Assembly (NCBI GenBank): GCA_016186915.1
Contig: JACPKU010000006.1
Coordinates: forward strand, 12,488-76,487
Direction of reading: 5' to 3'
DNA from: Candidatus Doudnabacteria bacterium
GTDB taxonomy: Bacteria > Patescibacteriota > Doudnabacteria > UBA920 > O2-02-FULL-48-8
Length of the DNA: 64,000 bases
Part shown: piece by piece, positions 10,201 to 63,912 of the stretch
Layout of the letters: every line of letters starts with the position of its first letter
Numbering within the stretch: position 1 is the stretch's first letter
The notes under the pieces: model-generated
The model's input: only the letters and a program-made list of their open reading frames with translations
Database searches by the model: none
Told to the model about the DNA's origin: nothing
Translations under genes and position numbers: made by a program

Positions 10201-10232
10201 ATCTGACCTCGATTAATCGGTTGGACGGGTAG
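7230..10232 (+). CDS. Large secreted multidomain surface protein: GH5-like (clan GH-A) TIM-barrel domain, polyproline linkers, IPT/TIG-like domain, C-terminal 2-TM VirB2/TrbC-type (T4SS-pilin-like) anchor
   Basis: Signal peptide; LYDLQNEFDG (NEx catalytic-acid motif of clan GH-A); runs of 8-12 Pro; C-terminal LWSLGVSALLAMLMMVLGGYLVMTAAGNAEQSSKGKEFIWSAIIGMGLLFASYLILNTINP two-helix module typical of T4SS-pilin-like tails in CPR surface proteins. Confidence 0.7.
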   Translation: MLNKKQTKFITKGFKILTGAIFVLAVFGSLVSPQAASSTTLTIQGDHFLLNGQAKFLVLAAYFDGLDAPNVGADLDYLKSKGIDGVRVFPNWWDTTTPLIFGNTLMNTDGSLDAGRLNDLRSIISAADSRGMVVDVSFARETVDGPCNTGGRNMMCENEYKNGVVATVQQLSSYSNVLYDLQNEFDGGITNLSSSHVSDLKNRVRAADSSATISASTGSYPGAGSAAAGYTNQYGFDFTNVHSTHLTSASGVAGMISPARSAGKPVYLGEPYHSTFISGGQATASELLNFATETKRTGAAAFVYHTRAGFILDGSSFQGNMTAVETSFLNSLANSLSQTTWGVNLISPPPPPPPPGTDPTPSPTGRVISSLSPTTVQPGDTMTIDGVNLDSTVQIFNSSNLRSTYVGQINASETQVTWLIPADLANGSYRLRVGPNLTDYSNLMPFTITGSTVPPPPPPPPPPPPIDYSPEIPDWVDCSAIPEDLTLLSEWNFWCGITPQPPPPPPPGQDPSNPLSLPGSGAYGMSMAYNPTNNTFLYVSTEGIGTPPNVQSRLIGAILDADDLAVIGGSFRVDQGDEFAASPQVVYNPDQDQFLVVWEDSRAGNNRRHIYGRLFGADGSPLGNDFVIVDLFDAFLNDLIYDDGNKKYVVLFEAGEPMFRTVDASGNLGPIVKVVPQLTEYQGQGNFTYNSNLNEYWTVYVAGVSGSDTQEEDDRIMLMRTDATTLQPVGQPVQLSATRPARNGFAEPKIAYSKYDGAAMTVWLERGRPGEGAGVYGRTVYDDLSLSGEFPVITPVTSPYSDQYGAPQLNYNPYTGLFSVSTLDNNGGTMLTELLVDGTVLGEDQVIGPTGSLGNFNPNSYVGPQGTIVAASTDFASTSATMNRSLFANLGPESQGGSGTVYPPGTPPTPVDTTVLGKLISQIYLWSLGVSALLAMLMMVLGGYLVMTAAGNAEQSSKGKEFIWSAIIGMGLLFASYLILNTINPDLVNFDLTSINRLDG

Positions 10233-23725: not shown

Positions 23726-23760
23726 AGAGCGTTTAGCTGTTAGCGTTTAGCGTATAGAGG
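23726..23760. repeat. (T)AGCGT-rich repeat flanking the 3' side of the four-helix-bundle gene; imperfect inverted partner at 24112-24146
   Basis: agcgtttagctgttagcgtttagcgtataga compared with the reverse complement of aacgctctacgctgtacgctatacgc (shared GCGTATAG/AGCGT cores). Confidence 0.45.
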
Positions 23761-24108
23761 TTTTAGACTTTGTATTAAGGCGTGCAACATTTTCTGTATT
23801 TCTTCTAAAAGAAGTTCGGCCCTTAGGTAATTTATATTTTGGTATTGGCGCTTAGCGATGACAATTTGTGTTTCTAGTTCACCCGAAGAAGAATTAGCTA
23901 TTCCAAGAAATTGGATAAACTCTAAGCGATGATTGCGTTTATAGCCCTCGGCAATATTCGACGCTATTGCAACCGCTGCTCTCTGCATCTGAGAAGCTAA
24001 ACCGTATGTTTCAGATTTCGGAAATTTAGCAGTAATTTTATAAATTTCGTCCACGAGATTGATCGCTTTTTGCCAAACTGTTAAATCCTTAAACGATTTT
24101 AATTTCAT
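23740..24108 (-). CDS. Four-helix-bundle protein (23S rRNA intervening-sequence-protein family, TIGR02436-like)
   Basis: WQKAINLVDEIY..FPKSETYGLASQMQRAAVAIASNIAEG..NSSSGELETQI is the classic family signature. Confidence 0.85.
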   Translation of the reverse strand: MKLKSFKDLTVWQKAINLVDEIYKITAKFPKSETYGLASQMQRAAVAIASNIAEGYKRNHRLEFIQFLGIANSSSGELETQIVIAKRQYQNINYLRAELLLEEIQKMLHALIQSLKPLYAKR

Positions 24109-26202: not shown

Positions 26203-26931
26203 CTAGCGCACCGCATCCACGCCGTTGCGGAAGATGGCTAGGCCGTCATCACCTCCTCGAAGTTTGTCCACCCGGCGGTCAGGGTGGGGCATTATTCCCA
26301 TGATCAGACCTGTTGCGTCGCAGGCTGCTGCGATGTGTGAGCCGTTCGGACTGGCCGGGTACTCTTTAGTCCCTTCTTCCGTTCCGTACGTGCCGGTAAT
26401 GTGGAGCCGGTCCAAGTCGCCGACGGGTCGTCCTTCGCCGTGCGCTGTAGGGATCACGATCGGCACACCCTCCAGTCCTTTGGTCCATATGCATCGGACC
26501 TTGGGCTCGTGTAGGTATACCGTGACGTTGTACCAGTGTTCGAAGTTGGCTGACTGGTTGAAATCCAGCGCCACAGTCGGCTCTCTTGCTGGGCCTGCGC
26601 CGATGAGTCCGGCAGCGGTCAGGACCTGGAAGCCGTTGCAGATTCCCAGCATGGGAATCCTTCGTTCGAGTACACGACTCAGTTGATCGGAAAGCCGGAG
26701 TCTCAGGTCAATGGCTTGCACTCGGCCAGTGCCGAAGTGATCGCCGTGACCGAATCCGCCCGGCCAGATAATCAGATCCGCCTCATCCAGCCGGCGCCTG
26801 CCCAGGAGGCACAGCTTGAGCGGCAGGACCTCCGGTCTGGCACCGGCAAGTTCAAGGGCGCGTTGGGTTTCCAGGTGGCAGTTCGTGCCCGGAACCCAAG
26901 GGATGATCGCACGAGGCTTGTGGGTTCTCAT
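26203..26931 (-). CDS. purQ: Phosphoribosylformylglycinamidine synthase, glutaminase subunit PurQ-like (class I GATase); high-GC island
   Basis: PGTNCHLE, PGGFGHGDH, GICNGFQVL, HGEGR, NPNGS motifs; start set at MRTHKP, giving an ATGA overlap with the purL stop; local GC ~60%. Confidence 0.85.
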   Translation of the reverse strand: MRTHKPRAIIPWVPGTNCHLETQRALELAGARPEVLPLKLCLLGRRRLDEADLIIWPGGFGHGDHFGTGRVQAIDLRLRLSDQLSRVLERRIPMLGICNGFQVLTAAGLIGAGPAREPTVALDFNQSANFEHWYNVTVYLHEPKVRCIWTKGLEGVPIVIPTAHGEGRPVGDLDRLHITGTYGTEEGTKEYPASPNGSHIAAACDATGLIMGIMPHPDRRVDKLRGGDDGLAIFRNGVDAVR

Positions 26932-29786
26932 GACACTACCTCCCGGAACGTTTTTGCCCACAGCGTGCTTAGTGTTGCGATGTCGGTTGTGAACAGGCGA
27001 TCCCCCGACACGTCGATTACCTGAACGTCGGGGTTGGGCGTGACCCAGCCGATTTCGACTGCGTCGTGGCCGAGCCATTTGTAGTCATCGGTTTTGGTCG
27101 TGAACACGATGCCACACGACATCTCTCCGAAAAGCGAGAAGAGCGAGTCGAAGGGTAGGTTGAGAACAAACCCGAGCCTGGATCCGATGGCCATCTCGAA
27201 CAGTCTTCGGATTAGTCCACCCTCAACCACGGCCGAACGCGAGCCTACCACACCTTTTCGCGCCAGGCTGTGGTATTTCGAAAATCCCTTGACTGCTTGA
27301 GCGAGGTCCACGATGGGCAGTTCGTTTCCGCGTTGTCCGTAGAGATCGAACAGCACTGATCCGCCGAGGTGCTTCTGCATAAGCCCTGGGCAGAACAGAA
27401 TGATGCGTTCTCCGACGTTTCCGAACGCCTTGGGTCGTAGTAGTCGGCCATCAGCCATGCGGCCAACTGTGAGAATATCCAGTGTCAGCGGCGCGTCGAT
27501 TCGTTCTCCTGATTTCGTTACAAACGTGCCGCTTGAACTGTCTTTGCCGGTGATGATAGGAACCCCGAGTTGTTCTGATGCCGGGACATACCCTTCCTTG
27601 ACCAGCTCGATCAGGGCTCGAGCATTGGTGGGGTTGTCCAGCACCTTAGGAGTGTAGACGTTGGCACAGGCTGTGATCTGCTTTGGGTCAAACCCGGCAG
27701 CCACAAGCTTGGTGACTGCTTGCAGGAAGACAAGTCGACCCAAGCCAGCTGGCGAGACCTCGCCGTAGAACTGATTGACCGCGTTACCTACCCCAAGCGC
27801 AAATCTTTTGCCTGGAACAGGTGCGGCGGCAAACAGATCATCTGGCATGTTCTGATCTTCACCACCGAGGTAGGGGATGAATGTGTTTCCTTGGACGGTC
27901 TGGTCGAATCGGTGTGCAGCCCACGATTGGTCGGCGAGATGGAAGTGGCCGAGGTGCTGGACGACAAGGTCTATCCAGTCCTGCTCGCTTGTGGGGATTG
28001 GCGGTTGGAACGGTTTTGGCTTTGGGAGCCGATCAGCCACCTCAATGCGTGGAAGGGGACAGTCATCCGTGAGGAACTCGTATGGCAGGTCCTCTACAAT
28101 CCCTTTTTCCGAAAGGGCCGGGGTTTGGAGCCATTGACGCTGGTCGAGTTCATCGTCAAACGCCACGACGCAGCGTCCGGTGTTGGTAAACATACCGATT
28201 ACGTCTGACGGCACGTCGTATTGGTCCAGAGTGTCTAGGGCCAGATCAAGGCGGCCAGGAGGAACGGCGATAACCATCCGCTCCTGGGATTCAGATAGCC
28301 AGATTTGCCAGCAGGACAGGCCAGCTGTCTTGAGTCGCACCCAAGCCAGGTTGACCCAGATGCCGCAACTCGAACCCATCTCACCAGCAGCAGAAGCAAG
28401 TCCGGCTGCGCCGCAGTCTGTGATTGCTCGGATGCAGCCCTGGTCGCGCAGAATAGGCACTGCTTCCATGAACTTGCGCTGTTCGATTGGGGCGCCGATT
28501 TGGACATGCGCTGCGTCCACGACTGCTGTTTGGTGGGTCATGCTGTCTGAACTGACCGTGGCGCCGTGGATCCCGTCGTTGCCTGTGGGACCACCAATGA
28601 GGAAGATGAAATCCCCAGGCACAGGTGCGCCCTTTTGGGCTTTGTCCTCGGGAATGATCCCGATACTGTGCCCTAGCGCAAACCCTTTCCAGTTGCGAGG
28701 ATGCATGAGGTAGGCAGAACAGGCCATGGGGATGCCCATTGGGTTCGTATATTCGTGTGTTCCGCGGATGGCTTCTTGGATTACTCTGGCCGGGTGGAAA
28801 GCACCTTCTGGCACGTCGTTCCAGTTGGTTCTGGGATCGGTAGTGGCCATGATGGTTGTGCCGCAAACAGGCCAACCTCCGAGCCCAGTTCCGATAACGT
28901 CGCGGATCACCCCGCCGTGCTTGGTCATGATACCGCCGTAAGGGTCGCCAGCGAATGTGGGAGAGATGTGGGTCTCGCCCTTGATGATCACGGCCCAGCC
29001 GCCGAACAGCTCCATCACTCCGCCGTTGTCCACGAAACATGACAGCACCAGCGGGTGGTTGATCTTTTCGGTCGCGGCCCGAATACACGGCAGCAGCCCC
29101 AGAGCCTTGAAGGTTGTGTGGAAGCAGTGGTCAGACCAGGCCGCGGCCGGATGTTCGAGTTCGACATCAGTCAGTGCGCGTCGCAGATTTCGACTGATGT
29201 GCTGTATCGCTAGTAGTTGTGCGTCCGTGAGGTGAGTCATCTTTCGGCTCTTTGCGAGGGTTTTCAGTTCTGCTTTGTCCATGCCCGCGACTGAAAAAAA
29301 CTGGACGGGCAAAGCCTCTGCTTGAGGGATCAGGGTGTCCCATTGCGCTTCGTTGATCACCTGCACTTCTGGGTTGTACAGATGGCGTGCGGCGATTTCC
29401 CGAGCAGCGATTTCGTCCACACCGGAAAATTGATACCGGTGCGCCAAGCGAACCCAGGTAACACCTTGGACACCGACAGCCTGGAAAGCGTGGAGGGCGG
29501 TTGGCATTTCCGGGTCGGTCATTGCCCGTTTGTAAGCCACTTCGATCACTGGTCCGCGGCTTAGATCGAGACGTGAACTAGAGAACGCAGTCTCGATCAC
29601 GGGATTTGCAAAAAGAATCCCGATGCGCGCCAGGTCAGCGATGGAAAGCTCAGGGCCTTCGCAACGGATCACCACCTCAATGTTCACTGACCTGAGTGAC
29701 GGCCAGGAGGCGAGAGCCGCGGCATGCAGTCTTTTGGCGATTGGGTCGTCGACGGTCCGAGTTTTGAAGAGAGTCAAAATTGGCAT
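26928..29786 (-). CDS. purL: PurS-PurL fusion: phosphoribosylformylglycinamidine synthase synthetase subunit with N-terminal PurS-like domain; high-GC island
   Basis: N-terminal FANPVIETAF-type PurS-like module; ETHISPTFAGDPYGGIMTKHGGVIRDVIGTG matches the PurL ETHNHP..PY.GAATG.GG.IRD motif; duplicated PurM-like halves; start set at the ATG preceded by ggaga (the track start at 29798 is a TTG). Confidence 0.85.
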   Translation of the reverse strand: MPILTLFKTRTVDDPIAKRLHAAALASWPSLRSVNIEVVIRCEGPELSIADLARIGILFANPVIETAFSSSRLDLSRGPVIEVAYKRAMTDPEMPTALHAFQAVGVQGVTWVRLAHRYQFSGVDEIAAREIAARHLYNPEVQVINEAQWDTLIPQAEALPVQFFSVAGMDKAELKTLAKSRKMTHLTDAQLLAIQHISRNLRRALTDVELEHPAAAWSDHCFHTTFKALGLLPCIRAATEKINHPLVLSCFVDNGGVMELFGGWAVIIKGETHISPTFAGDPYGGIMTKHGGVIRDVIGTGLGGWPVCGTTIMATTDPRTNWNDVPEGAFHPARVIQEAIRGTHEYTNPMGIPMACSAYLMHPRNWKGFALGHSIGIIPEDKAQKGAPVPGDFIFLIGGPTGNDGIHGATVSSDSMTHQTAVVDAAHVQIGAPIEQRKFMEAVPILRDQGCIRAITDCGAAGLASAAGEMGSSCGIWVNLAWVRLKTAGLSCWQIWLSESQERMVIAVPPGRLDLALDTLDQYDVPSDVIGMFTNTGRCVVAFDDELDQRQWLQTPALSEKGIVEDLPYEFLTDDCPLPRIEVADRLPKPKPFQPPIPTSEQDWIDLVVQHLGHFHLADQSWAAHRFDQTVQGNTFIPYLGGEDQNMPDDLFAAAPVPGKRFALGVGNAVNQFYGEVSPAGLGRLVFLQAVTKLVAAGFDPKQITACANVYTPKVLDNPTNARALIELVKEGYVPASEQLGVPIITGKDSSSGTFVTKSGERIDAPLTLDILTVGRMADGRLLRPKAFGNVGERIILFCPGLMQKHLGGSVLFDLYGQRGNELPIVDLAQAVKGFSKYHSLARKGVVGSRSAVVEGGLIRRLFEMAIGSRLGFVLNLPFDSLFSLFGEMSCGIVFTTKTDDYKWLGHDAVEIGWVTPNPDVQVIDVSGDRLFTTDIATLSTLWAKTFREVVS

Positions 29787-29902
29787 CAGGTTCTCCAATA
29801 TTGAAAGAAAGATCGTTTTCCTCCTACGAACTTACAAGAACTTCAAGGACGCTCGCCCTTGACTTTCCAGTCTACCATAGTTTGATGGTTGGAGAAAATA
29901 AT

Positions 29903-29921: not shown

Positions 29922-30500
29922 ATGTTAAATAAAATTGTTCTCGATCTTGAAACTCAAAAATCGTTTGATGAAGTAGGCGGCAGGGACCGGAACCATATGT
30001 TGAAAGTCTCGGTGGTGGGGATTTATTCTTATTCGTTGAATAAATTTTCGACCTTCACCGAAAGTCAGTTGTTTCGCCTTGGCGAGATGCTCGCAGAGGC
30101 AGATCAGATCATTGGTTTTAACATAAAAAATTTCGATTTTCCAGTCTTACAGCCTTATCTAAGTTTTAAACTTAATAAAATTCCTCATCTCGACATCTTG
30201 GAAGAGGTGGAGAAGCTTATCGGGCACAGAGTGAAGCTGGACAACCTGGCCCAGACGACCCTGGGGACAGCCAAGAGCGGGGACGGACTGATGGCCTTAA
30301 AGCTTTTCAAACAGGGGAGGATGGAGGAGTTAAAAAAATATTGTTTGGATGATGTCAAAATCACGCGCGATTTGTACAACTACGTCCGGAAATACGGCAA
30401 ACTTATTTATAAAGATTACTTTGAAACCCGAGAAATAAAAATAAATTTTGAGGAGCCGCAAGGAAGACAGAAGGCCTCGCGTCAAGCTTCATTATTCTGA
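29922..30500 (+). CDS. RNase H-fold 3'-5' exonuclease-like protein (PolB-exonuclease-like / YprB-type)
   Basis: VLDLETQ (Exo I-like acidic motif) and IIGFNIKNFDFPVL (Exo II-like), plus YCLDDVKITRDLY. Confidence 0.5.
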   Translation: MLNKIVLDLETQKSFDEVGGRDRNHMLKVSVVGIYSYSLNKFSTFTESQLFRLGEMLAEADQIIGFNIKNFDFPVLQPYLSFKLNKIPHLDILEEVEKLIGHRVKLDNLAQTTLGTAKSGDGLMALKLFKQGRMEELKKYCLDDVKITRDLYNYVRKYGKLIYKDYFETREIKINFEEPQGRQKASRQASLF

Positions 30501-30501
30501 C

Positions 30502-31359
30502 ATGAAAAAATATATCTTTTGGTTATCAGTGTCGGTATCAGTATTGACAGGCACGGCGTTAGTTTATTTTTTCTTTGTGCCCGCGTTCGCAGGAAAGATT
30601 ATAATCTCTCCAGTTATTGATCTTGGTATTTTCACTATTCGCTGGTATGGTCTAATGATCGCTTTGGCGGTTTTGACAGGATTTTTAGTCGCCCGGAAGT
30701 ATGCTTGGAAATTCGGCATTGATGCAAGACAGTTGACTGATTTTGCTTTTTGGTTGGTGATTGTGTCGGGAATCGGGGCAAGATTATACTTTGTTATTTT
30801 CGAGTTTAATTATTTTGTTCGCAATCCTCTGGAGATTGTAGAAATCTGGCATGGCGGGATTTCGATTTATGGCGCAGTCATCTCAGGCTTCGTTTTTGCT
30901 TTTTTCTATGCAAGGCGAAAAGCATATTCTTCCTGGCAACTGATGGATCTGACCGCGCTTTCATTACCGCTGGCGCAGGCAGTCGGCCGTTTCGGTAATT
31001 TTTTCAATCAAGAAGCTTTCGGACTCCCTACGAACTTGCCCTGGAAAATGTTCGTTGGTAGAAACAACCGGCCTCTGGAGTTTGTTGACGCTGATTTTTT
31101 TCATCCTACTTTTTTGTATGAAGCAATCTGGAATGTTATTGTTTTTTTCGTTCTTTTAAAACTGGTCGGGCGGCACAAAAGCGGAGTTTTAGCCTTTGCA
31201 TATTTGATGTCCTATTCATTGGGCAGGTTTTTTATTGAAGGCATCCGGCTTGACAGCGCCCTTATTATGGGGTTTAGATCTGATCAGGTTATCGCGTTGA
31301 TTATTTTTCTTTTCGCCGGATTTATGATTTACCGCTTGTCTCGCACGCCACAACAGTAA
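30502..31359 (+). CDS. lgt: Prolipoprotein diacylglyceryl transferase
   Basis: Lgt signature GRFGNFFNQEAFG, WHGGISIYG, HPTFLYEAIWN; 7 TM. Confidence 0.9.
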   Translation: MKKYIFWLSVSVSVLTGTALVYFFFVPAFAGKIIISPVIDLGIFTIRWYGLMIALAVLTGFLVARKYAWKFGIDARQLTDFAFWLVIVSGIGARLYFVIFEFNYFVRNPLEIVEIWHGGISIYGAVISGFVFAFFYARRKAYSSWQLMDLTALSLPLAQAVGRFGNFFNQEAFGLPTNLPWKMFVGRNNRPLEFVDADFFHPTFLYEAIWNVIVFFVLLKLVGRHKSGVLAFAYLMSYSLGRFFIEGIRLDSALIMGFRSDQVIALIIFLFAGFMIYRLSRTPQQ

Positions 31360-31418: not shown

Positions 31419-32135
31419 TTGCTTATGACCAAACACCTTTCTGCCATTTCGCTAAGTTTGCTGCTCCTTTTTGCACTAAGTGGAAGTACAGGCAGTATTT
31501 CATTACTCGCAGTATTTGTGTTAGGGCTGATTCTGATCACCTACCTTGTTAATTTTTTCAGATTAGGATTCACCTGGCCGCACCTGCTCCTCCCGACTTT
31601 TTTCTTGCTGGCCGTCGGGTTTGTGTTTACGATTATTACCACCCCGACATTGCGATTGATTTTTCTTTTGGTTGCCGCTGCCCTGTTTTATTTCTTGGAA
31701 ACAAAGCTCGGCCGCGAAAGTCATTATCTTCAAGGACTGTACTTATTTTCCATATTTGGCATCTATGCCGGACTGTTTGCTTTGCGATTTTATCTTAATC
31801 TAAATGTTTGGCTGTTGTTGCTGTTGATAATTTTGGCTACTTATTTTTTTTCCATCCAGGGATTTGCCGGATTTGATCTTTCGTCCAAACGGAATTTTAT
31901 CTTCATAATTGTTTTAGTTATTGCACAGTCAGGTCTGGGACTGACGCTTTGGCCAACCCATTTTTTGATCAACGCCGCAGTATTGTTTACGTTTTTCTAT
32001 TTATTGTGGATTTTTGCTGTTTCCGCCTTTTTGGGCAAACTGACTATGAAAAAGATCTTTTGGCAGATTGGTTTGGTAAGCGTTTTTTTGCTAATCATAT
32101 TGTCTTCAGCGGCTTGGCGCCCGCTTTTGAGTTAA
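31419..32135 (+). CDS. Polytopic membrane protein, hypothetical
   Basis: 6-7 hydrophobic helices; no recognisable motif. Confidence 0.5.
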   Translation: MLMTKHLSAISLSLLLLFALSGSTGSISLLAVFVLGLILITYLVNFFRLGFTWPHLLLPTFFLLAVGFVFTIITTPTLRLIFLLVAAALFYFLETKLGRESHYLQGLYLFSIFGIYAGLFALRFYLNLNVWLLLLLIILATYFFSIQGFAGFDLSSKRNFIFIIVLVIAQSGLGLTLWPTHFLINAAVLFTFFYLLWIFAVSAFLGKLTMKKIFWQIGLVSVFLLIILSSAAWRPLLS

Positions 32136-32139
32136 ACTC

Positions 32140-32433
32140 ATGTCTCCATCCCGAAGAATTGATTGGTCAATTTATACCCCGTTTCAGCAGAGAGTCTTTC
32201 GTGTCATTATGAAAATCCCGAAAGGCCGGGTGTTGACTTATGGCCAGGTGGCCACAAAAATGGGAAACAAAAAATGGGCCAGAGCAGTGGGACAAGCGCT
32301 GGCTAAAAACCAACACGCGCCCGCTATTCCTTGCCATAGGGTTGTGGGTTATAATAGTATGGGTGGCTACAGTGCCGAAGGAGGCGTGAAGCGCAAGGCT
32401 AAATTATTATTGAGGGAAGGACATCATGTCTAA
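32140..32433 (+). CDS. Methylated-DNA--protein-cysteine methyltransferase (Ogt/MGMT) DNA-binding/active-site domain protein
   Basis: PCHRVV active-site motif and the surrounding HTH of the MGMT C-terminal domain. Confidence 0.8.
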   Translation: MSPSRRIDWSIYTPFQQRVFRVIMKIPKGRVLTYGQVATKMGNKKWARAVGQALAKNQHAPAIPCHRVVGYNSMGGYSAEGGVKRKAKLLLREGHHV

Positions 32434-33490
32434 AAAACTTTTACTTCAGATATTAATCATTTCATTCATTGTGGGTGCTTTTGGCAGTATTTTTTTTGAT
32501 CGCGTGGTTCTCCCGCCGCTTTCTACCTTCCCGGGTCTGTCATGGTTGAGCAGGCTTCGAAGCGACACGCCAATTGTGATTACCAGAAAAGAAGAAGTCC
32601 GGCTCAACGAGGGCGTGAATTTGATAGAGTTGACTAAGCAAGCACAGGGGTTTACAGTCAGCATCTTTAATGTTTCAGAATCAAGCACCGAGCTTTTGGG
32701 AAGCGGGATTATCCTATCTTCCGACGGTTTAATTTTTACTGCCAAAGCAGTGGTCGGATCACAAAGCGAAGTTACTGTGGTGCTCAACGACGGCTCAAAT
32801 TATCCAGGCTTGGTGCGGGCGCTGGACCCAAACAGTGAGTTGGCCGTGGTGACCATTCCGACAAACAATCTTCCTATAGCGCAGTTTGAAAAAGTGGCTG
32901 ATTTGGTGGTGGCGCAAAGAGTTTTGGCGCTTGGCAAAACCACGGAGCCGTTTACTAGAAAATTCGCCTCCGGCTTTGTGACCAAAACGGTTTTCAATAA
33001 TCCTGACCCGAATAAAGTTTTTTCCTCTGATTTTTTGGGCAGCACGATTCTTACTGACGCTCCGCTGTCAAACGATTTTGCAGGAGGCCCGGTGTTTAAC
33101 CTAAACGGCCGAGTGGTGGGTATGGTGGCGGATACCGGCGGGAAAATATTAATTTCTGAAAGCTTGGATCCCGCGCTGAAGACCTATTTGGCAGAAGGCA
33201 AAATTGTCCGTCCTAAGCTCGGATTGAATTATATCAACATCACTGATAGTCTGGCGAAGCTCCTTGGTTTGAATTTTGGCGGCGCTAGAGTGGTACAGAT
33301 TCAACGGGGGGGAGCAGCGAGCCTGGCAGGCCTGAAGGTTAATGACGTGGTCGTGGAGATTGAGGGGCAATCAGTTGTGGAGAAAAACTTTGAGTTTGTT
33401 TTCAACAGCAATCTTTCCGAGAACATGAGATTTGTGATTTTGCGAGACAACGAAAGGGAAGAGATAATTGTTAATCCAGTAATTGAGTAA
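32426..33490 (+). CDS. HtrA/DegP-like trypsin-fold + PDZ protein with all three catalytic-triad positions substituted (predicted pseudo-protease)
   Basis: Aligned to the DegP motifs TNAHVV / DIALL / GNSGGP this protein reads TAKAVV / ELAVV / NDFAGGP (His to Lys, Asp to Glu, Ser to Ala); C-terminal PDZ domain intact; N-terminal TM. Confidence 0.65.
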   Translation: MSKKLLLQILIISFIVGAFGSIFFDRVVLPPLSTFPGLSWLSRLRSDTPIVITRKEEVRLNEGVNLIELTKQAQGFTVSIFNVSESSTELLGSGIILSSDGLIFTAKAVVGSQSEVTVVLNDGSNYPGLVRALDPNSELAVVTIPTNNLPIAQFEKVADLVVAQRVLALGKTTEPFTRKFASGFVTKTVFNNPDPNKVFSSDFLGSTILTDAPLSNDFAGGPVFNLNGRVVGMVADTGGKILISESLDPALKTYLAEGKIVRPKLGLNYINITDSLAKLLGLNFGGARVVQIQRGGAASLAGLKVNDVVVEIEGQSVVEKNFEFVFNSNLSENMRFVILRDNEREEIIVNPVIE

Positions 33491-36752: not shown

Positions 36753-37483
36753 AAGGTGTGATTCTCGCAGGTGGGAAGGCTACAAGATTAAGACCCTTAA
36801 CTTTCGTTACGAACAAACACTTGTTGCCAGTCTATAACAAACCGATGATCTTTTATCCGCTTGAAGCCATGGCTAAAGCTGGGATTAAAGATGTGTTAAT
36901 GATCACAGGTCCTGATCATGCCGGGCATTTTTTAAATTTGCTTCGATCCGGAGGTGAATTTGGACTGAATCTAACATATGAGATTCAAGATGAAGCAGGG
37001 GGACTGTCTCATGCAGTAAGACTTGCAGAATCGTTTGCAGATAACCAAAAACTTCTTGTGATTTTAGGGGATAATATATTTGAGCATGATTTATCCGATG
37101 CTGTAAAAGATTTTGAAAGCCAAGACAGAGGAGCAAGAATTTTTGCTAAAGAGATGGATGAAGCAGGGCAGTATGGTGTAGTTGAGATAGACAGTGAAGG
37201 CACGGTTTTATCAATTGAAGAAAAGCCAAAAAAGCCAAAAAGTAAATTGGCCCAGACAGGAATTTATATGTATGATAATCAAGTGTTTGATTTGATAAAA
37301 GAACTTAAGCCTTCCACAAGAGGCGAGCTGGAAATTACTGATTTAAATAATTTATATTTGAAACAAGGAATCTTAAGTTGTGAAGTTATGAAAGGCTGGT
37401 GGGTTGACGCGGGAACTTCTTTTGATGAATTGCTGCGCGCCAGCAATCAAGTCGCAAAACTTACAAAACAAAAAGATAAATAA
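36749..37483 (+). CDS. rfbA: Glucose-1-phosphate thymidylyltransferase-like sugar nucleotidyltransferase
   Basis: MKGVILAGGKATRLRPLT..; ATGA overlap with the rmlD stop. Confidence 0.85.
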   Translation: MKGVILAGGKATRLRPLTFVTNKHLLPVYNKPMIFYPLEAMAKAGIKDVLMITGPDHAGHFLNLLRSGGEFGLNLTYEIQDEAGGLSHAVRLAESFADNQKLLVILGDNIFEHDLSDAVKDFESQDRGARIFAKEMDEAGQYGVVEIDSEGTVLSIEEKPKKPKSKLAQTGIYMYDNQVFDLIKELKPSTRGELEITDLNNLYLKQGILSCEVMKGWWVDAGTSFDELLRASNQVAKLTKQKDK

Positions 37484-38385
37484 TGACTGAGCTTCAACAC
37501 AAAACTTTATCAACATTTATAGTAACTGCCATTTCGTTTTTGGGCTTTCAAGCCCTGGTTTTTATTGTTTCAATTTATCAACTAGGGCAATACTTTCGTG
37601 CCGCGTTTTGGATTTACGCCTTTCTGGTTTTCTGGCTGCTTTTCATTTTTGACCTGCATTTGAGAAATCGCGGTGTGTTTGCGCTGTTGAAACTCAAACA
37701 CAACGGCGTAAGGTTAGTCTGGGAAGCCTTGAAAAAGCGCGTGGAGCATGTTTTTAATTGGCATTATTTCAGCCACTTGCTAGCTTTTCTGGTTTTACCA
37801 AGCATTATTTTTTGGAGTACCGTAGCCTTAATTGCTCTCAATCCGTTTGCTGAGCAAATCAAACAAATCATTGTGGTTATGACTGTGATTAATCTTGCCG
37901 TGGCTTATTGGTATTTCACGGAGCGGTTTAGCAAAAAATTAGAAGCCCACGAACTGGGCTTGAAAGTTTTGAACCTGGTTAAGCTTTTTGCTGCGTATTT
38001 AGCGGCAGCTTCTATCTTGGGGCTCACTTGGTATTTCGGTTTTGGAGAAGGCTTTTTGCTTGCCGGCATTTTTACTTTGACTTTCTTGGTTATGTATCAA
38101 GCTTTGTTTCAGCACAAACTCCTCAAGCTTAGCTCTGAATTTTACGCTTTAGGAGTTGCTGGCGCTTGCTCTTTGGCCGGACTTTGGCTTTATAGTAATT
38201 GGGATCTGCAATACTTCAGCGGGGGAATCGTGGTGTTGGCAACCTATAATGCATTATGGGGAATATTGCACCACCACCTGGACCAGAGCTTAAACAAAAA
38301 GCTGGTGGGTGAATATTTGCTGATGTTGTTAGTGGTTTTTTCTATTCTTTTCGCCACTCATAACTTTGCCGGCAGAGTATTGTAG
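37483..38385 (+). CDS. Polytopic membrane protein, hypothetical
   Basis: 8 or more hydrophobic helices; start overlaps the rmlA stop. Confidence 0.45.
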   Translation: MTELQHKTLSTFIVTAISFLGFQALVFIVSIYQLGQYFRAAFWIYAFLVFWLLFIFDLHLRNRGVFALLKLKHNGVRLVWEALKKRVEHVFNWHYFSHLLAFLVLPSIIFWSTVALIALNPFAEQIKQIIVVMTVINLAVAYWYFTERFSKKLEAHELGLKVLNLVKLFAAYLAAASILGLTWYFGFGEGFLLAGIFTLTFLVMYQALFQHKLLKLSSEFYALGVAGACSLAGLWLYSNWDLQYFSGGIVVLATYNALWGILHHHLDQSLNKKLVGEYLLMLLVVFSILFATHNFAGRVL

Positions 38386-38991: not shown

Positions 38992-39906
38992 TTAGTACAA
39001 GACAAACAGGCTCGTCACCACAATCAAAAGAAAGATAACGGTGTGCGGGGATGCGTGCATATTTATTCGTTTAATCTTGGCACGATGAATGATAATAGAA
39101 TCAATAATGAGAAACATCGCGTAAATCCCAGCCAAAATAGCTACAATTATCCGGAAGAAATTTAAAAATTGAGCCTCCCTGGAAACTGGTATTTGCAAAT
39201 CAGCCGGAGTAGTTATAGATTCTGTTTCAATTTGTTCAGTGTTACTTGCTTCCGAAGGAATGATTGGCTGTTCGATCGGTTGTTTAGTGTCTTGTTGAGC
39301 AGTTGGCGGAGACGAGGTTGGTGGCGCGGTTGCTTGTGCTATTGCAGGCGTTGGATTTTGATTGAGAAGCGTCCCGAACAGGCTGGTAATCAGAATGCTG
39401 TTGTGATTTGGTTCGAATAGTCCGAAAATGGCGGCTAGACCTTGGTCCTGAAATTTTTCATTGACGATATTTTCTCGGTGAGTTGGGCTGTTCATCCAGG
39501 CACGAACAACCGCGTCACCAGAAACAAAATCCATGGCGAGATTTTCGCCGAGTGTTAGGTATGGCCTGTAGCCTTGAACCTCAATAGTTGGCCAGACGTA
39601 ACTGCCATCTGGATTGAGATGGGCAAAATAACTTCGGTCTAACATGTCGTTTGATTTAATGCCGGCCGCAGAAACCAGGCGCTGATCACTCAAAAGGGCT
39701 GGAACAAACCTTTGCGTCCTTTCACTATTGATACTTGTCATAAGATCTTGAGCATCAATACTGGACTGAGCGTAAGTCACCGCGCTAGGCCCTAAAATTC
39801 TCAATGACCAGATAATTACCATAAAAACCGCCAAAGCAATAGGCTTGGTCAGCACTGGCTGGTAGTCATTTTCTTCGCTGGCAATTAGATAGTGTTTTAG
39901 TTTCAT
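38992..39906 (-). CDS. CAP/SCP-domain protein (second paralogue) with Thr/Pro-rich linker and C-terminal TM anchors
   Basis: SINSERTQ..SYFAH..GENLA..SPTHRENI CAP motifs. Confidence 0.7.
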   Translation of the reverse strand: MKLKHYLIASEENDYQPVLTKPIALAVFMVIIWSLRILGPSAVTYAQSSIDAQDLMTSINSERTQRFVPALLSDQRLVSAAGIKSNDMLDRSYFAHLNPDGSYVWPTIEVQGYRPYLTLGENLAMDFVSGDAVVRAWMNSPTHRENIVNEKFQDQGLAAIFGLFEPNHNSILITSLFGTLLNQNPTPAIAQATAPPTSSPPTAQQDTKQPIEQPIIPSEASNTEQIETESITTPADLQIPVSREAQFLNFFRIIVAILAGIYAMFLIIDSIIIHRAKIKRINMHASPHTVIFLLIVVTSLFVLY

Positions 39907-40014
39907 TTAGCTAGGTTATATCTATATTTTAGCGGTTTTTTTAAGCCTTGACAAATAGGGCTTGATGTGCTAAGATTGCGTGTTATAATTATATATTAAA
40001 TTCATTAAATTCAA

Positions 40015-41103
40015 ATGCAGTCATATTTATCCAATCCAATAAACACGCGTTCCCCCAAGGAAATTCATAGAATTCTCAAACTTGGCGATAATGTTGTGTT
40101 GCCTCTGCAGGCGGAACCTATGCCACGAAAGCCAAGCAAATTGATTTTGGCAGGCAGTTGGCTTTGGAGAAAAATTAAGCCGCATACTCCTAAGCTTTTT
40201 TATCCTGTGGTATTTATCGTGGCTTTTGCCTTTTTTTACACGCTATTCAATTTTTCTTCCTTGGTCAGCCAGGTGGACGCGGTGTTTAACAACCAATCGC
40301 AGGATGAAGTGATTTTGGGCGAAGATATCGGCGACTACTACGAATGGATTAGCCGCTATTACTTTGCCGTGAGCGACAAGAAGTTGCTTTCAGCCACCAA
40401 TGATATTGACGAGGACGGTCTTGCTAATTATGACGAGTTTGTTTTACAGACCAATCCCACTGTTCTTGACTCTGACAACGACGGCGTAAGCGACGGACTG
40501 GAGGTTATTAACCAAACCAACCCTTGGGGCCAAGGCAGCATGACCCAAGACCAGCTCAAATCAAGCGAGCCGCTTGATTTGATTATGATTAACAACCGAA
40601 TCAGTTTCAACATCGCAAATCATCAATCAAACGCTTCAAACAATCCGAAGATCGATTATGATTTGGAAAAACACGGCACGCTTTCAATCCCCAAACTTAA
40701 TCTGCAAGTGCCAATCGTCTGGACCAAAGATCCGGCAAGTTTCAGCGAAGACCTAAAGAATGGTGTGGTGCATTATCCAGGCACCGCGTTGCCCGGGGAG
40801 CCGGGAGTGGTATATATTGCCGGCCACTCTTCTGATTATATTTGGAACAACCATCCATATACTCGCGTCTTTGCCAAGCTGAATTTTCTAGAACCAGGCG
40901 ATGACGTCTTTGTGGATGTTACTGGAGCAGACGGACAAATTCGAAACTTTCGTTATGTGGTGACTGAAGAAAATGTATACAACCCAGACGATCAAGCACA
41001 GTTTATTGACGATTCGACCGCCAAGCTCAATCTTTCCACCTGTTGGCCGATTGGAACCCAGAGAGATAGATACGTGGTTTCTGCTGTTTTGGAAGGGATA
41101 TAA
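40015..41103 (+). CDS. Sortase-family transpeptidase with N-terminal TM and thrombospondin-type-3-like Ca-binding repeats
   Basis: Catalytic His in YIAGHS and Cys in LNLSTCWP (TLxTC-type) plus conserved R in RDRYVV; DIDEDGLANYDE..DSDNDGVSDGLE acidic DxDxDG repeats; alternative start at MPRKPS (40120). Confidence 0.8.
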   Translation: MQSYLSNPINTRSPKEIHRILKLGDNVVLPLQAEPMPRKPSKLILAGSWLWRKIKPHTPKLFYPVVFIVAFAFFYTLFNFSSLVSQVDAVFNNQSQDEVILGEDIGDYYEWISRYYFAVSDKKLLSATNDIDEDGLANYDEFVLQTNPTVLDSDNDGVSDGLEVINQTNPWGQGSMTQDQLKSSEPLDLIMINNRISFNIANHQSNASNNPKIDYDLEKHGTLSIPKLNLQVPIVWTKDPASFSEDLKNGVVHYPGTALPGEPGVVYIAGHSSDYIWNNHPYTRVFAKLNFLEPGDDVFVDVTGADGQIRNFRYVVTEENVYNPDDQAQFIDDSTAKLNLSTCWPIGTQRDRYVVSAVLEGI

Positions 41104-41202
41104 CCTTGACAATGGTGTTGACAATTGGCAAGATTTTTGCTAGCATTGTCAGTTAATAACTAAGCATTAATTAACATAAGCATTAATTAACACATTCAAT
41201 AT

Positions 41203-44200
41203 ATGAATTTCATAGCTGCCAGAAAAAATAGATATTTTATTAAAAGCAAAACCGCTAAGTTTGTCGGTTTGGGCTTCGTGTTGGCTCTAACCGTTTCTTT
41301 TATTGGATTTTCACTGGCTAACCACAACAGCGGCACTGGAATCCCGGTGGACACTGGCTGGATTGACGCTTCTAGATTTGTTGGAAGCGTGGAGTTTGAT
41401 TGTGGCCAGACCGTGGGTTCAGTCTGGGGGCAAAGAGGTGACCAATTCACGATTCCAGGACATGTTTTAAATATTCCGGAAGGTTCATATACGATTGATA
41501 TCCGCGCTCATTATGGGTTTTATGAAGCAGACCCACAAGCGCCGCAAACCAATGAAACTATGAGAGTAAGCACCTCTGTTGCTTCCAGACAAATCCCTGA
41601 TTTGAATGGCCATGGCGGATCTAGACCTGACAGAGACAACTGTGATCAGATCAACGCTAATTTTAGAATTTACACCAACATTACCCGCAGTCCGATTAAC
41701 TACCAGGACGGTGGGATTAGATTTGCCGGCTTAACCTCAGATTCGCAGAGTATCAGCATTCAGGCGGTGCGGGTGCATGGCACTTCAACTCCTCCGCCCC
41801 CGCCTCCGCCGCAGCCGTGCGTGCCAGTGGGTTTGATTATGCCGCAAAGCGGGCAGGTATTTGGGGCCAATGAGACCAACCCTGCTTTCCAGTGGCAGGG
41901 GACCAACCGGACCTTCTATATCCTGGACATTACCGAGGATCCGAACTTTTCTTGGTGGTGGAATAATGGCAGTGGCGCTGGCGGCGGTATTCAAATTACT
42001 TCTGCTAATTTTTCGGACGTCACCAATACTTTCTACTCCCAAGGGCACCCCGCTCCGGGATTGGCTCAAGCCGGCAAAACTTATTACTGGCGAGTGTTTG
42101 CTTACAATACGGACGATCCGGGCGCTGGCTGTCACTCAGTCGTGAGGTCGTTCTCTTTGCAATCAACTCCGCCGCCGCCCCCGCCTCCTCCTCAAAAAGC
42201 CCAAATTACCTTAGTCAAAGAAGTGATCAACAACAACGGTGGCAACAAGCAGCCCTCAGATTTCGCCTTACATATCGCGGGGCACACGTTAACCAGTGGC
42301 CAATCTGTCGAACTTAACCCCGGCAATTATCAAGCTACGGAAACTCAGCAAGCCGGTTATGCCTTGTTAGGTTGGCGAGGCGCTTGTGATGGTAGCGGTA
42401 GCGTAACCTTGCAAGCCGGTCAGAACGTGACTTGTGTAGTAACCAATGATGACCAAGCCCAGCCTACTGTTTCGTTGTCTTTAGTGAAAAATGTGCGAAA
42501 CGTGACCCAAGGGCAAACCACATTTGTAGATTCAGTTTCCGCCCAGCCAAACGAACAGGTAGAGTTCAGAATCCAAGTGGCGGCTTCTGGCAACACCAGC
42601 GCCCAAAACGTCGTGGTGACTGATACTCTGCCAAATAACTTTAATCTTAGTTCCGGTAGTTTAACCAACAATCTAGGCAACATGTCAGCCGGCAGCACTC
42701 AAATCATAACCTTGAGCGCTACTGCTGCCTCGGCCTTTAACTTCCCAATCGGTTCGTCCACTTGGATCAATACCGCTACAGCTACCGCCTCTAACGCCAA
42801 CACGGTTTCAGACACTGCTCACGTGGTAGTTAACCGCCAAATTACCGGTACCCCCAGCCTGACCATTGACAAAACTGTCCGAAACGTCACAGCCGGCCAA
42901 GCAATATTTAGCAATTCTGTATCAGCCAACCCGCAAGATCAAGTGGAATTCAAAGTTGTTGTGAGCAACGTCGGACAGGCCACAGCCAACAATGTGGTGG
43001 TGACTGATACTCTGCCAAATAACTTTAATCTTAGTTCTGGCAGTTTAACCAACAATCTAGGCAACATGTCAGCCGGCAGCACTCAAATCATAACCTTGAG
43101 CGCCACTGCTGCCTCTGCCTCTAACTTCCCCATCGGTTCGTCCACTTGGACCAATACTGCTACGGCTACCGCTTCTAATACCAATACGGTTTCTGATACC
43201 GCCAATGTGATTGTAGAAAGAGACGGACCACCTGGCGATGCTCAACTAAGTATCACCAAAGAAGTCAGAAACGTTACTCAAGGAGTAGCTTTCTTTTCTA
43301 AATCCGCATCAGCTCAGCCAAACGAACAAGTCGAGTTTAGAATCCGCGTTCGATCAACTGGTCAAACTACAGCCAACAATGTGAACCTGACTGATATTTT
43401 GCCAAATAACTTTGTATTGAACTTTGCCCAGACGGGCGCAGGAGTCAGCGGCTCCAACACCCAGTTTAGTTTGGGCAATATGCCGACGAACACTGAAAGA
43501 ACTCTGTCCTTGTTTGTGACTGCGGCTTCAGCCGCCAATTTCCCAATCGGCACCAGCACTCACACCAACACAGCCACTGCCACAGCCTCTAACGCCAATT
43601 CCGTCTCTGACAATGCTTCAGTCGTGATTAACCGGGACGGCGGAGGCAATGGCAACCCATTCTTAGCAATCACGAAAGAAGTAAGAAATCTCACTGACAA
43701 CACGGGCTATTCTCATTCAGTAACCGCGGATGACAGCGATCGCGTAGAGTTTAGAATTGTTGTGCGAAACACCGGCAGCTCAAACTCTACTGCTACCAAC
43801 GTTCGCGTGACGGATTTCTTGCCGGCCAACCTGGAATTTGTTGCCAGTACGTTAAGGATTGACAGCAACACGCAGTTTAGCAATAACCTGCTTGGCAATA
43901 TTTTCTTAGGCAATCTGTCTGCGAATCAGAGCAAAACTATTACCTTTGAAGCAAGGGTAAATGCCAACTTCAACAATACGCTGATAAACACTGCCACTGC
44001 TTTCTCGGACAACACCTCGCCAGTCAATGACAGCGCCAGCGTGTTCGTCTCGCGCGTGGTTGGCGGAAATATTGATCTGGTCTTGAGCAAGTCCGCGTAT
44101 AACTTAACTCAAGGACGGGACGCTACCGCGGTAACCGCGCGTGCAGGCGATCAGATTGAATACATTTTGCGCGTAGAAAATCGCGGCAACGCCACTGCCA

Positions 44201-44583
44201 CCAACTTCGTCATTGAGGACAGCATTGCGGACATTCTGGAACTGGCTGACCTGCTTAGCTATTCTGGCGCCACATTTGACTCAAGCGCTCGGGTACTTCG
44301 ATGGCCGTCTGAAAATATTGGGGCCGGGCAAACTGTAGAGAAAAGATTCTCTGTCCGGGTAAAAAGCCCTGTTCCTGGCGGCACTGATCTGGTTATGACT
44401 AATGTCTACGGCAACACGGTCAGAGTACCGGTTGGCACCCCGCCTTCTGTTCCTCCTCCCGTGTATCCTCCGTACAAAGCTCCGCCCACCGGCCCTGCCA
44501 CCACTTTCAGTTTGATCTTGGCTGGCTTGACTGTCGCGGGAGCGTTCGGGATTAAAAAAATTAAGCAAGCCTCGAGAGCATGA
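41203..44583 (+). CDS. Large cell-surface protein: N-terminal TM, two fibronectin/Ig-like modules separated by polyPro linkers, about 6 DUF11 repeat domains, C-terminal sorting-signal-like tail
   Basis: Repeated L(S/T)(L/I)xK.VRNVTQG..F..SVSAQPNEQVEFRI.V...G...A.NV.VTD.LP modules (DUF11 pattern); C-terminal KAPPTGPATT + hydrophobic + KKIKQASRA. Confidence 0.8.
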   Translation: MNFIAARKNRYFIKSKTAKFVGLGFVLALTVSFIGFSLANHNSGTGIPVDTGWIDASRFVGSVEFDCGQTVGSVWGQRGDQFTIPGHVLNIPEGSYTIDIRAHYGFYEADPQAPQTNETMRVSTSVASRQIPDLNGHGGSRPDRDNCDQINANFRIYTNITRSPINYQDGGIRFAGLTSDSQSISIQAVRVHGTSTPPPPPPPQPCVPVGLIMPQSGQVFGANETNPAFQWQGTNRTFYILDITEDPNFSWWWNNGSGAGGGIQITSANFSDVTNTFYSQGHPAPGLAQAGKTYYWRVFAYNTDDPGAGCHSVVRSFSLQSTPPPPPPPPQKAQITLVKEVINNNGGNKQPSDFALHIAGHTLTSGQSVELNPGNYQATETQQAGYALLGWRGACDGSGSVTLQAGQNVTCVVTNDDQAQPTVSLSLVKNVRNVTQGQTTFVDSVSAQPNEQVEFRIQVAASGNTSAQNVVVTDTLPNNFNLSSGSLTNNLGNMSAGSTQIITLSATAASAFNFPIGSSTWINTATATASNANTVSDTAHVVVNRQITGTPSLTIDKTVRNVTAGQAIFSNSVSANPQDQVEFKVVVSNVGQATANNVVVTDTLPNNFNLSSGSLTNNLGNMSAGSTQIITLSATAASASNFPIGSSTWTNTATATASNTNTVSDTANVIVERDGPPGDAQLSITKEVRNVTQGVAFFSKSASAQPNEQVEFRIRVRSTGQTTANNVNLTDILPNNFVLNFAQTGAGVSGSNTQFSLGNMPTNTERTLSLFVTAASAANFPIGTSTHTNTATATASNANSVSDNASVVINRDGGGNGNPFLAITKEVRNLTDNTGYSHSVTADDSDRVEFRIVVRNTGSSNSTATNVRVTDFLPANLEFVASTLRIDSNTQFSNNLLGNIFLGNLSANQSKTITFEARVNANFNNTLINTATAFSDNTSPVNDSASVFVSRVVGGNIDLVLSKSAYNLTQGRDATAVTARAGDQIEYILRVENRGNATATNFVIEDSIADILELADLLSYSGATFDSSARVLRWPSENIGAGQTVEKRFSVRVKSPVPGGTDLVMTNVYGNTVRVPVGTPPSVPPPVYPPYKAPPTGPATTFSLILAGLTVAGAFGIKKIKQASRA
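42607..43215 (+). repeat. Intragenic ~200-bp near-identical (~90%) tandem duplication inside the DUF11 gene
   Basis: gtggtgactgatactctgccaaataactttaatcttagtt..caacatgtcagccggcagcactcaaatcataaccttgagcgc occurs at ~42613 and ~42997. Confidence 0.8.
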
Positions 44584-52615: not shown

Positions 52616-52641
52616 CGGGGATGCTATTGTCCGGATCTGTT

Positions 52642-52679
52642 GCCGCTTTCGTGAGGGAATGAAAGCGGCTTATTTTTTT
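52642..52679 (+). terminator. Intrinsic terminator gccgctttc..gaaagcggc followed by a T-run
   Basis: 9-bp stem then ttattttttt; marks the end of the high-GC island. Confidence 0.75.
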
Positions 52680-52696
52680 GCTATAATGGGATTACC

Positions 52697-62476: not shown

Positions 62477-62667
62477 ACCTGCAGTTTAACATGAAAGTAA
62501 GATTATGGTAAAATTAGCTTACGCCAGGTAGTAGAAATTTGATAGTTGTCCCGCTTTGCGGGGCAACTACAAGATTCAAGAGATGAATCTGGTTTCTATT
62601 TTCTGACACAAGCTGCGCACCAAAAACATAAAAATTGTTATCATTAATCAAATTTTCACTACCTGGC

Positions 62668-63912
62668 ATGACAGAAAAAGAAGAGCCAAAGATTAGCCCA
62701 GAAACCCGATCTTCGAACCCCAAACTATTTACCCAGGTGATAGTGGTGATTTTGATCGCCGTCTTTTTTGGGTTTGGATATTATCTTGGCAATGGCCAAA
62801 TCAAAGTCAGTTCCGACGGAATAGAAATTGATCGCGGCAGGGGGCCGTCCTTGAGCGCTGACTACAGTCTGCTTTGGGATACCTTGGATTTGCTCAACAG
62901 CCGGTTTTATAATAAGCCCTTGGATCAGAAAGAATTGATGTATGGCGCTGTCAAAGGACTGGTCAAAGCGGCCGGCGATCCTTACACTGTTTTTTTTGAT
63001 CCAGAAGAGTCGAAGTTTTTTGCAGATGGCCTGAGTGGCACGTTTGAAGGAATTGGGGCGGAAATCGGGATTAAGAATGATCAACTGGTTATAATTGCTC
63101 CTTTAGACAATACTCCCGCATCCAGAGCCGGGCTTCAGGCTGGTGACATTATTTTGGCCATTGACGGGGAATCGTCTGCGAGCATGAGCGTTGACCAGGC
63201 GGCTTCTTTGATTCGAGGAGTGAAGGGGACAGAAGTAGTTTTGGCAGTTCTGAAAGAAGGAGAGAGAAACCCGGTTGACATTACTATTCTCCGCGACAAG
63301 ATTGTGGTGAAGAGCCTGGAGTTTGAAACAAGACAGCTCGGTGACAAAAAAATTGCGCTGATTAAAATCAGCAGATTCAGTGAAGACACCAAGGGACTGT
63401 TCGATCGGTTGGTGGATCGGATTTTGACCGAAGGATTTGATGGAATCATTTTGGATCTGAGAAACAACCCCGGGGGATATTTGGAAACCTCGATTGATCT
63501 GGCTTCCAACTGGGTGGATATCGGAGAAGTGGTGGTTAAGGAAGTTAATCACGAGAATGAAATTCAGGAATACGATTCAACCATAATTCCAAGATTGAAA
63601 GGTACAAAGACCGTGGTGCTGGTAAATGAAGGCTCGGCTTCAGCTTCGGAAATTCTAGCCGGGGCCTTGCAGGATTACGGTTTGGCGACTTTGGTCGGCG
63701 AGACGACTTTTGGCAAAGGATCAGTGCAGGAGTTGAGCGAACTGAAAGGCGATTCGACTTTGAAAATTACAGTCGCGCACTGGCAGACACCTGCGGGCCG
63801 CGATATTGATAAAAACGGACTTCAGCCAGATATTGTGGTGGAGACCACGAAGGAAGATTTTGAGAGTGACCGAGATCCGCAGCTGGATCGGGCATTGGAA
63901 TTGTTTCAGTAA
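62668..63912 (+). CDS. ctpA: Carboxyl-terminal processing protease (S41, CtpA/Prc-like) with PDZ domain
   Basis: PDZ (AGLQAGDIILAIDGE), ILDLRNNPGG, GSASASEILAGAL (catalytic Ser), TFGKGSVQ (Lys); N-terminal TM; an alternative TTG start exists at 62635. Confidence 0.85.
   Translation: MTEKEEPKISPETRSSNPKLFTQVIVVILIAVFFGFGYYLGNGQIKVSSDGIEIDRGRGPSLSADYSLLWDTLDLLNSRFYNKPLDQKELMYGAVKGLVKAAGDPYTVFFDPEESKFFADGLSGTFEGIGAEIGIKNDQLVIIAPLDNTPASRAGLQAGDIILAIDGESSASMSVDQAASLIRGVKGTEVVLAVLKEGERNPVDITILRDKIVVKSLEFETRQLGDKKIALIKISRFSEDTKGLFDRLVDRILTEGFDGIILDLRNNPGGYLETSIDLASNWVDIGEVVVKEVNHENEIQEYDSTIIPRLKGTKTVVLVNEGSASASEILAGALQDYGLATLVGETTFGKGSVQELSELKGDSTLKITVAHWQTPAGRDIDKNGLQPDIVVETTKEDFESDRDPQLDRALELFQ

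Follow-up and report, generated by a model that had tools for sequence, protein, structure and literature searches.

What does an HtrA protein do once its catalytic residues have been lost? This question is raised by one gene in a 64,000-nucleotide stretch of Candidatus Doudnabacteria DNA (contig JACPKU010000006.1; the whole stretch is called the window below). HtrA proteases are near-universal enzymes for envelope quality control, and natural HtrA pseudoproteases are, to our knowledge, confined to a handful of unusual examples, MamO among them. The open reading frame (ORF) at 32426..33490 (+) encodes an HtrA-like protein of 354 amino acids; it is clearly a real gene and an HtrA homologue, and the NCBI record of the identical protein reads 'serine protease [Candidatus Doudnabacteria bacterium]'. 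We consider it highly probable that this protein is a pseudoprotease. We also hold, with moderate confidence, that it is a non-proteolytic descendant of the HtrA type found in the candidate phyla radiation (CPR), which would act by binding at the envelope within a gene module headed by lgt.

First, the catalytic positions were determined. The triad columns were read from a joint MAFFT alignment that included 53 canonical HtrAs, each with His, Asp, and Ser, and residue-level alignments to HtrA structures in the PDB gave the same columns; three independent alignments concurred. A sequence-only reading of the window had picked out the strings TAKAVV, ELAVV, and NDFAGGP as the remains of the HtrA motifs, and all three were found in the protein. 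The TAKAVV block (32738..32755, +), the counterpart of TNxHVV, places Ala108 (32747-32749) in the catalytic His column. Lys107 (32744-32746) precedes it, so the replacement of His by Lys given in that reading was off by one residue in both the PDB and the MAFFT alignments. The other two replacements were as it had described: Glu138 (32837-32839) lies in the Asp column, within the ELAVV block (32837..32851, +) that corresponds to D(L/I/V)AV, and Ala219 (33080-33082) lies in the Ser column, within the NDFAGGP block (33071..33091, +) that corresponds to PGNSGGP. An offset in its manual alignment had been allowed for, and the profile alignment placed no genuine His, Asp, or Ser at the catalytic positions. 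The triad present in 53 of 53 canonical HtrAs is absent from the window protein (A108, E138, A219). The oxyanion-hole motif GNSGGP is also absent, its Gly-Asn being replaced by Asp217-Phe218, and across the family the motif reads D/E-F/Y-(V/I/A)-G-G-P. The window protein contains neither His nor Cys. Judged from these residues, it cannot cleave peptide bonds in the manner of a serine protease.

The same loss was seen throughout the orthologous group. The Doudna-type family was defined as 57 clusters at 90% identity, with proteins of 350-360 amino acids that each scored at least 265 bits; after these 57 clusters the bit scores fell sharply, to 97 or lower for ordinary HtrAs. The His column contained E, D, N, S, A, and other residues but H in none of the 57 clusters, the Asp column was mainly E (21), P (20), or D (12), and the Ser column was V (20), I (18), A (8), or L (4), with S in one. 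No Ser, Cys, or His was conserved at any position, and 15 of the 57 members had no His anywhere. The description of the protein as a pseudo-protease is strongly supported by the missing triad, the missing oxyanion motif, the lack of His and Cys, and the lack of a conserved Ser, Cys, or His in the family. A peptidase with a non-canonical mechanism, in which for example Lys107 would act as general base together with another nucleophile, is very improbable. In 51 of the 57 clusters K or R stands at position 107, beside the former His, and Thr105 is nearly invariant in the family; however, Thr105 is also found in 53 of 53 canonical HtrAs and is therefore structural. The V, I, A, or L in the Ser column, the replaced oxyanion Gly-Asn, the want of any conserved Ser, Cys, or His, and a constraint that is relaxed throughout the C-barrel and the active-site loops also tell against such an enzyme, and the Lys107-based mechanism was rejected on sequence grounds.

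Loss of catalysis has not been followed by decay of the gene. Both Trypsin_2 and PDZ_2 were matched by 57 of 57 members, and the ORFs were intact and of constant length in at least 57 clusters, with identity down to 40%. The family alignment contained 21 invariant columns. Members at 42-50% identity occupied the same chromosomal position, where the gene order was exonuclease, lgt, membrane protein, MGMT-like, HtrA-like, HIT, rml genes, CAP, and sortase. With unbroken reading frames, 21 invariant columns, and a shared chromosomal position, the data indicate that the family is under purifying selection as a non-catalytic protein and is not decaying. The chance that the gene is a functionless relic, or that the loss of the triad is an alignment artefact, is close to nil. 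Nothing beyond the missing catalytic residues themselves speaks for either, whereas the intact ORFs, the invariant columns, the conserved synteny, and the agreement of the three alignments all speak against them. An RBS-like (ribosome-binding-site-like) sequence, GGGAAGGA, also lies upstream of the start, and the start overlaps the stop of the upstream MGMT-like gene by 8 nt. A genome scan with the family alignment, which used one narrow pattern and does not give a genome-wide view, returned nine loci, mostly labelled Candidatus Doudnabacteria. The contigs of loci L009 (DASPNG010000036.1), L010, L014, and L017 carried a Doudnabacteria-type gene and synteny in records that say 'Candidatus Binatia' or 'uncultured Candidatus Saccharibacteria'; these labels are probably binning or automatic-taxonomy errors.

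The remaining architecture of the protein was as the sequence-only reading had proposed, with an N-terminal transmembrane (TM) segment and a PDZ domain. The TM segment (residues 5-23; 32438..32494, +) follows Lys3-Lys4, is the only TM candidate in the protein, and is predicted to be an N-in/C-out anchor. Only four residues precede it, and there is no cytoplasmic signalling domain. A lipoprotein anchor was ruled out, as the protein has no Cys. A juxtamembrane linker and N-terminal helix (residues 29-76; 32510..32653, +) form the most conserved part of the family. They are followed by a protease domain of the trypsin/chymotrypsin fold (S1C-like; residues 77-243; 32654..33154, +), in which the active-site loops are degenerate, and by the PDZ domain (residues 261-351; 33206..33478, +). 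The PDZ matches of the window protein itself were below threshold, and the AlphaFold2 model gave a confident PDZ fold. Its carboxylate-binding loop, RPKLGLNY (33209-33232, +), was retained, and the conserved residues R262, P263, G266, and Y269 were kept in dead and active groups alike.

We then compared constraint, as mean column entropy, between the Doudna-type family and 201 active CPR HtrAs, all 201 of which had the His-Asp-Ser (HDS) triad. The entropy of the protease C-barrel, which carries the L1, L2, LD, and L3 loops, was higher in the dead family (1.81) than in the active enzymes (0.93). In contrast, the entropy of the dead family was lower in the TM segment (1.65 versus 2.35), in the juxtamembrane linker (1.56 versus 3.33), and in the N-terminal helix (1.07 versus 1.65). 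About 40 positions that were at least 90% conserved in the active enzymes were changed or relaxed in the dead family, and the conserved residues specific to the dead family include R26, P30, P49, I52, R54, N61, G63, N65, L69, and Q72. These values suggest a shift of selection away from the active-site loops and towards the TM and juxtamembrane segment.

The PDZ domain is not universally required, because one Doudnabacteria subclade (L013-L015; P0122 and P0123) encodes a natural PDZ-less version of 238-246 amino acids that ends cleanly after the protease-like domain. These variants (L013 2992-3729, L014 3001-3717, and L015 2983-3735) keep the TM segment, the linker, and the dead protease domain, and their stop codon is overlapped by the start of the HIT gene. 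The retained carboxylate loop of the window protein is compatible with the C-terminal peptide binding that the sequence-only reading had predicted for it, and with the chaperone or regulator role suggested there. PDZ binding nevertheless appears unlikely as the core conserved function, because the domain has been lost in a subclade and the strongest family-specific constraint is juxtamembrane.

In the window, lgt (prolipoprotein diacylglyceryl transferase; 30448..31359, +) is the first gene of a three-gene module. It is followed by a gene for a polytopic membrane protein of 238 amino acids with about nine hydrophobic segments and weak DUF5656 relatives (31419..32135, +), by the MGMT-like gene (32140..32433, +; 97 amino acids, Pfam DNA_binding_1, PCHRV motif), and by the HtrA-like gene. 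A metagenome scan with the P0166-type triad-less subfamily, which is about 27% identical to the window protein, gave 35 loci, all triad-less. These were pooled with the earlier loci and duplicates were removed, after which 23 loci had at least 2.2 kb of upstream sequence. In all 23 informative loci lgt lay upstream on the same strand, and between lgt and the HtrA-like gene there was only the gene for a polytopic membrane protein, plus the MGMT-like gene in loci of the Doudna type. The intervening membrane protein was 226-308 amino acids long (mostly 236-261) in these 23 loci, with 6-9 hydrophobic segments. Weak Pfam DUF5656 matches were found in 9 of 18 members, and a profile search found no relative of it in the PDB. 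By comparison, lgt was present within 10 kb of active CPR HtrAs in none of four loci. A second polytopic membrane protein of the DUF5656 type is encoded at 37483-38385 (+) and recurs a few kilobases downstream in many loci; the two proteins have no BLASTP similarity to each other.

The linkage to lgt also bears on the possibility that the protein serves outside the cytoplasm in ligand binding, sensing, or adhesion, similar to the S1C domain of RsgI9. Such a module might touch components of the host cell or the cell wall if the CPR bacterium lives as an episymbiont. We regard this as improbable. The tight linkage favours biogenesis over sensing, the strongest conservation adjoins the membrane and not the distal surface, and the four residues ahead of the TM segment leave no cytoplasmic signalling domain.

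The origin of the family was investigated by a profile search run exhaustively against 1.84 billion representatives, which returned about 20 Doudna-type proteins followed by a continuum of further matches. Among 147 new cluster representatives, the triad columns were HDS or HES in 77, and about 65 were triad-less in many different ways. These approximately 65 proteins were 345-425 amino acids long and had the same TM and linker architecture as the Doudna type. The nearest active relatives were about 400-425 amino acids long, with SDGLIxTNKHVV and GNSGGP present, and those with a lineage label among the matches listed were from Berkelbacteria, Parcubacteria, or the 'Patescibacteria group'. In a neighbour-joining (NJ) tree, CPR-type HtrAs were split from other HtrAs in 178 of 200 bootstraps, the Doudna-type family was monophyletic in 172 of 200, and the triad-less proteins together with one HDS outlier formed one clade in 165 of 200, placed beside or within the active CPR-type HtrAs. 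Partial-triad forms (HDT, EDS, QDS, and QNS; P0146, P0147, P0167, and P0183) stood at the base of the triad-less clade, as did P0197, which has an HDS triad but the oxyanion motif SHSGSP; these basal forms may be evolutionary intermediates. The data suggest that the triad-less clade descends from active CPR-type HtrAs and is large, extending beyond Doudnabacteria. It is apparently undescribed, and no earlier description of HtrA pseudoproteases in CPR, Patescibacteria, or Doudnabacteria was found in the literature searched.

Descent from active enzymes raises the possibility that an active HtrA paralogue is encoded elsewhere in the genome and that the protein, itself non-catalytic, assists or regulates it, either by tuning activity in mixed HtrA trimers or as MamO does for MamE. 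This is possible, though we judge it unlikely. HtrAs generally function as trimers, the closest relatives of the family are active CPR-type HtrAs, which are widespread, and a dead gene with its own lgt-linked locus, distinct from the loci of active HtrAs, fits an ancient paralogy. There is also the precedent of MamO, a pseudo-HtrA needed for MamE-dependent proteolysis (PMC4794232). However, the window contains no second HtrA-like ORF, in agreement with the sequence-only reading, the sole weak match being the PDZ domain of an S41 peptidase, and no second HtrA-like gene was found within ±10 kb in about 40 dead loci. Nor did the ±10 kb around the gene at 4 active and about 40 dead loci contain a tandem pair of a dead and an active HtrA. 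Active HtrAs were searched for with a profile of active CPR HtrAs and with the best-scoring active relative, P0126, and none labelled Doudnabacteria was found among the 240 matches listed (120 per search, of more than 7000), most of which bear no organism label. In addition, two other CPR genomes have a homologue of the MGMT-like gene (44-57% identity; L018 9738-10004 and L020 9671-9991) immediately ahead of an active HtrA, and the presence of this gene directly before the dead gene in Doudnabacteria hints at replacement and not coexistence. The pairing could reflect orthologous replacement in Doudnabacteria, or the merger of two loci. It is odd for a gene of the DNA-repair type to be paired with one for the envelope, and the pairing runs counter to the signal from linkage to lgt. 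The S41 peptidase, a C-terminal processing peptidase (CtpA/CtpB-like; 62635..63912, +), is a further candidate for an extracytoplasmic PDZ protease.

If replacement was complete, the triad-less protein would be the sole HtrA member in Doudnabacteria and possibly in other CPR bacteria, having taken over the ancestral housekeeping HtrA locus, and together with Lgt and the DUF5656-like protein it would form a non-proteolytic machine for prolipoproteins or exported proteins. We put this forward as a speculative extension that is unlikely to hold. If it were true, these ultra-small bacteria would maintain the quality of their envelope with no HtrA protease at all.

The reading we prefer, a CPR-type HtrA descendant that binds at the envelope, would place the protein as a non-catalytic envelope factor. 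CPR cells are taken as monoderm. The protein would be tethered by its one N-terminal TM helix in the N-in/C-out orientation, so that its trypsin-fold and PDZ domains would lie outside the cytoplasmic membrane, against its outer face, as those of Gram-positive HtrAs do. There it would bind rather than cut, as a holdase, scaffold, or adaptor for exported and possibly lipid-modified envelope proteins. The conserved juxtamembrane region may dock on a membrane partner, for which the adjacent DUF5656-like protein and/or Lgt are candidates, and the PDZ domain, where present, would add peptide binding. A link of the dead HtrA to Lgt or the envelope is the more tentative part, and we give it somewhat less than an even chance.

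Several points weigh against this reading. The proposed role in binding, as holdase or scaffold, and the connection with Lgt are drawn from synteny and conservation patterns only, and in small CPR genomes common descent alone may keep genes together. An active HtrA may be present elsewhere in the same genomes. The few basal members with partial or complete triads (HDT, EDS, and QDS; HDS in P0197) suggest that activity is not uniform in the clade, and the PDZ-less variants show that the architecture is partly dispensable. The NJ phylogeny may also be affected by long-branch attraction, since the dead sequences evolve fast.

The family is of interest for several reasons. Dead HtrAs form an entire radiation that is conserved across CPR/Patescibacteria, and genes kept in such minimal genomes are probably important. 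Database names for family members ('serine protease', 'protease Do', and 'S1C family serine protease') misdescribe the biochemistry of triad-less proteins. The module of lgt, membrane protein, and dead HtrA provides a testable lead to a function without proteolysis in the biogenesis of lipoproteins or the envelope, and a first functional handle on the DUF5656-like membrane protein.

Other features of the window were also recorded. A GC-rich block at 26203-29798 (-), with a GC content of 0.56-0.57 against a background of about 0.44, contains a purQ-like (GATase_5) and a purL-like (FGAR-AT/AIRS_C) gene. This pair is absent between the aspartyl-tRNA synthetase (AspRS) and exonuclease genes in three other Doudnabacteria loci (L006-L008), which suggests a recent horizontal acquisition. 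Further GC-rich stretches (0.53-0.54) were found at 8001-10000, in an ORF of 1000 amino acids (7230-10232), and at 52001-54000, in the ORF at 52697-54220. A small gene at 23740-24108 (-), between ScpA and a tRNA_edit gene, matches 23S_rRNA_IVP and bAvd (a four-helix bundle similar to accessory proteins of diversity-generating retroelements), and is absent from this position in L006-L008. Positions 38992-44583 encode a cluster of a CAP-domain protein, a sortase, and a surface protein of 1126 amino acids, which is conserved downstream in other loci of Doudnabacteria, where proteins with CLIPPER and TSP3 repeats accompany it.

Finally, the window protein was compared with known systems. The active CPR-type HtrAs, named 'trypsin-like peptidase domain-containing protein' or 'protease Do', are about 400-425 amino acids long with one PDZ domain. 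They share with it the N-terminal TM segment, the P-V-V-N..E-V motif of the linker, the SDGLIxT block, and the RPxLGxxY loop of the PDZ domain. They differ in that TNKHVV, the Asp, and GNSGGP are kept, the protein is about 50-70 amino acids longer, the active-site loops are highly conserved, and linkage to lgt is lacking (0 of 4 loci). All HtrA equivalog models placed the window protein far under their curated cutoffs: TIGR02037 (HtrA/DegP) gave 115.9 bits against a cutoff of 416.2, and TIGR02038 (DegS) 74 bits against 423. DegS shares the TM anchor, the protease domain, and the single PDZ domain, but DegP and DegS, unlike the triad-less window protein, have an intact triad and are proteases in their natural form, and the outer membrane and RseA cascade of their E. 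coli setting are absent from the monoderm context here. The active-site mutant DegP S210A retains chaperone activity and is the classical case of an HtrA scaffold working without catalysis.

Natural parallels are found among HtrA-fold proteins with a new role. In magnetotactic bacteria, the HtrA-family pseudoprotease MamO activates MamE and has a surface di-His site that binds metal; it carries a fused TauE transporter domain and is encoded in a magnetosome-island locus (PMC4794232). It shares with the window protein a degenerate catalytic site on an HtrA fold. However, the window protein has one TM segment, one PDZ domain, and no TauE domain, its gene lies among lgt, MGMT-like, HIT, and rml genes, and it scored 27 bits with the NCBIfam MamO model NF040961 against a cutoff of 800. 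A MamO-like di-His metal site was ruled out, as the window protein has no His. In the Clostridium thermocellum anti-sigma factor RsgI9, the S1C domain is described as a protease-like domain that binds cellulose (PMC12203970). The RsgI9 S1C-like ectodomain (PDB 7sjy) belongs to a protein with a cytoplasmic anti-sigma domain, an NTF2 domain, and no PDZ domain, whereas the window protein has no cytoplasmic domain and most members of its group have a PDZ domain. The window protein keeps the S1C peptidase fold and lacks the defining catalytic features. It belongs to none of these groups, and by analogy it would resemble in its action the repurposed HtrA scaffolds of MamO, the RsgI9 S1C domain, and DegP S210A.
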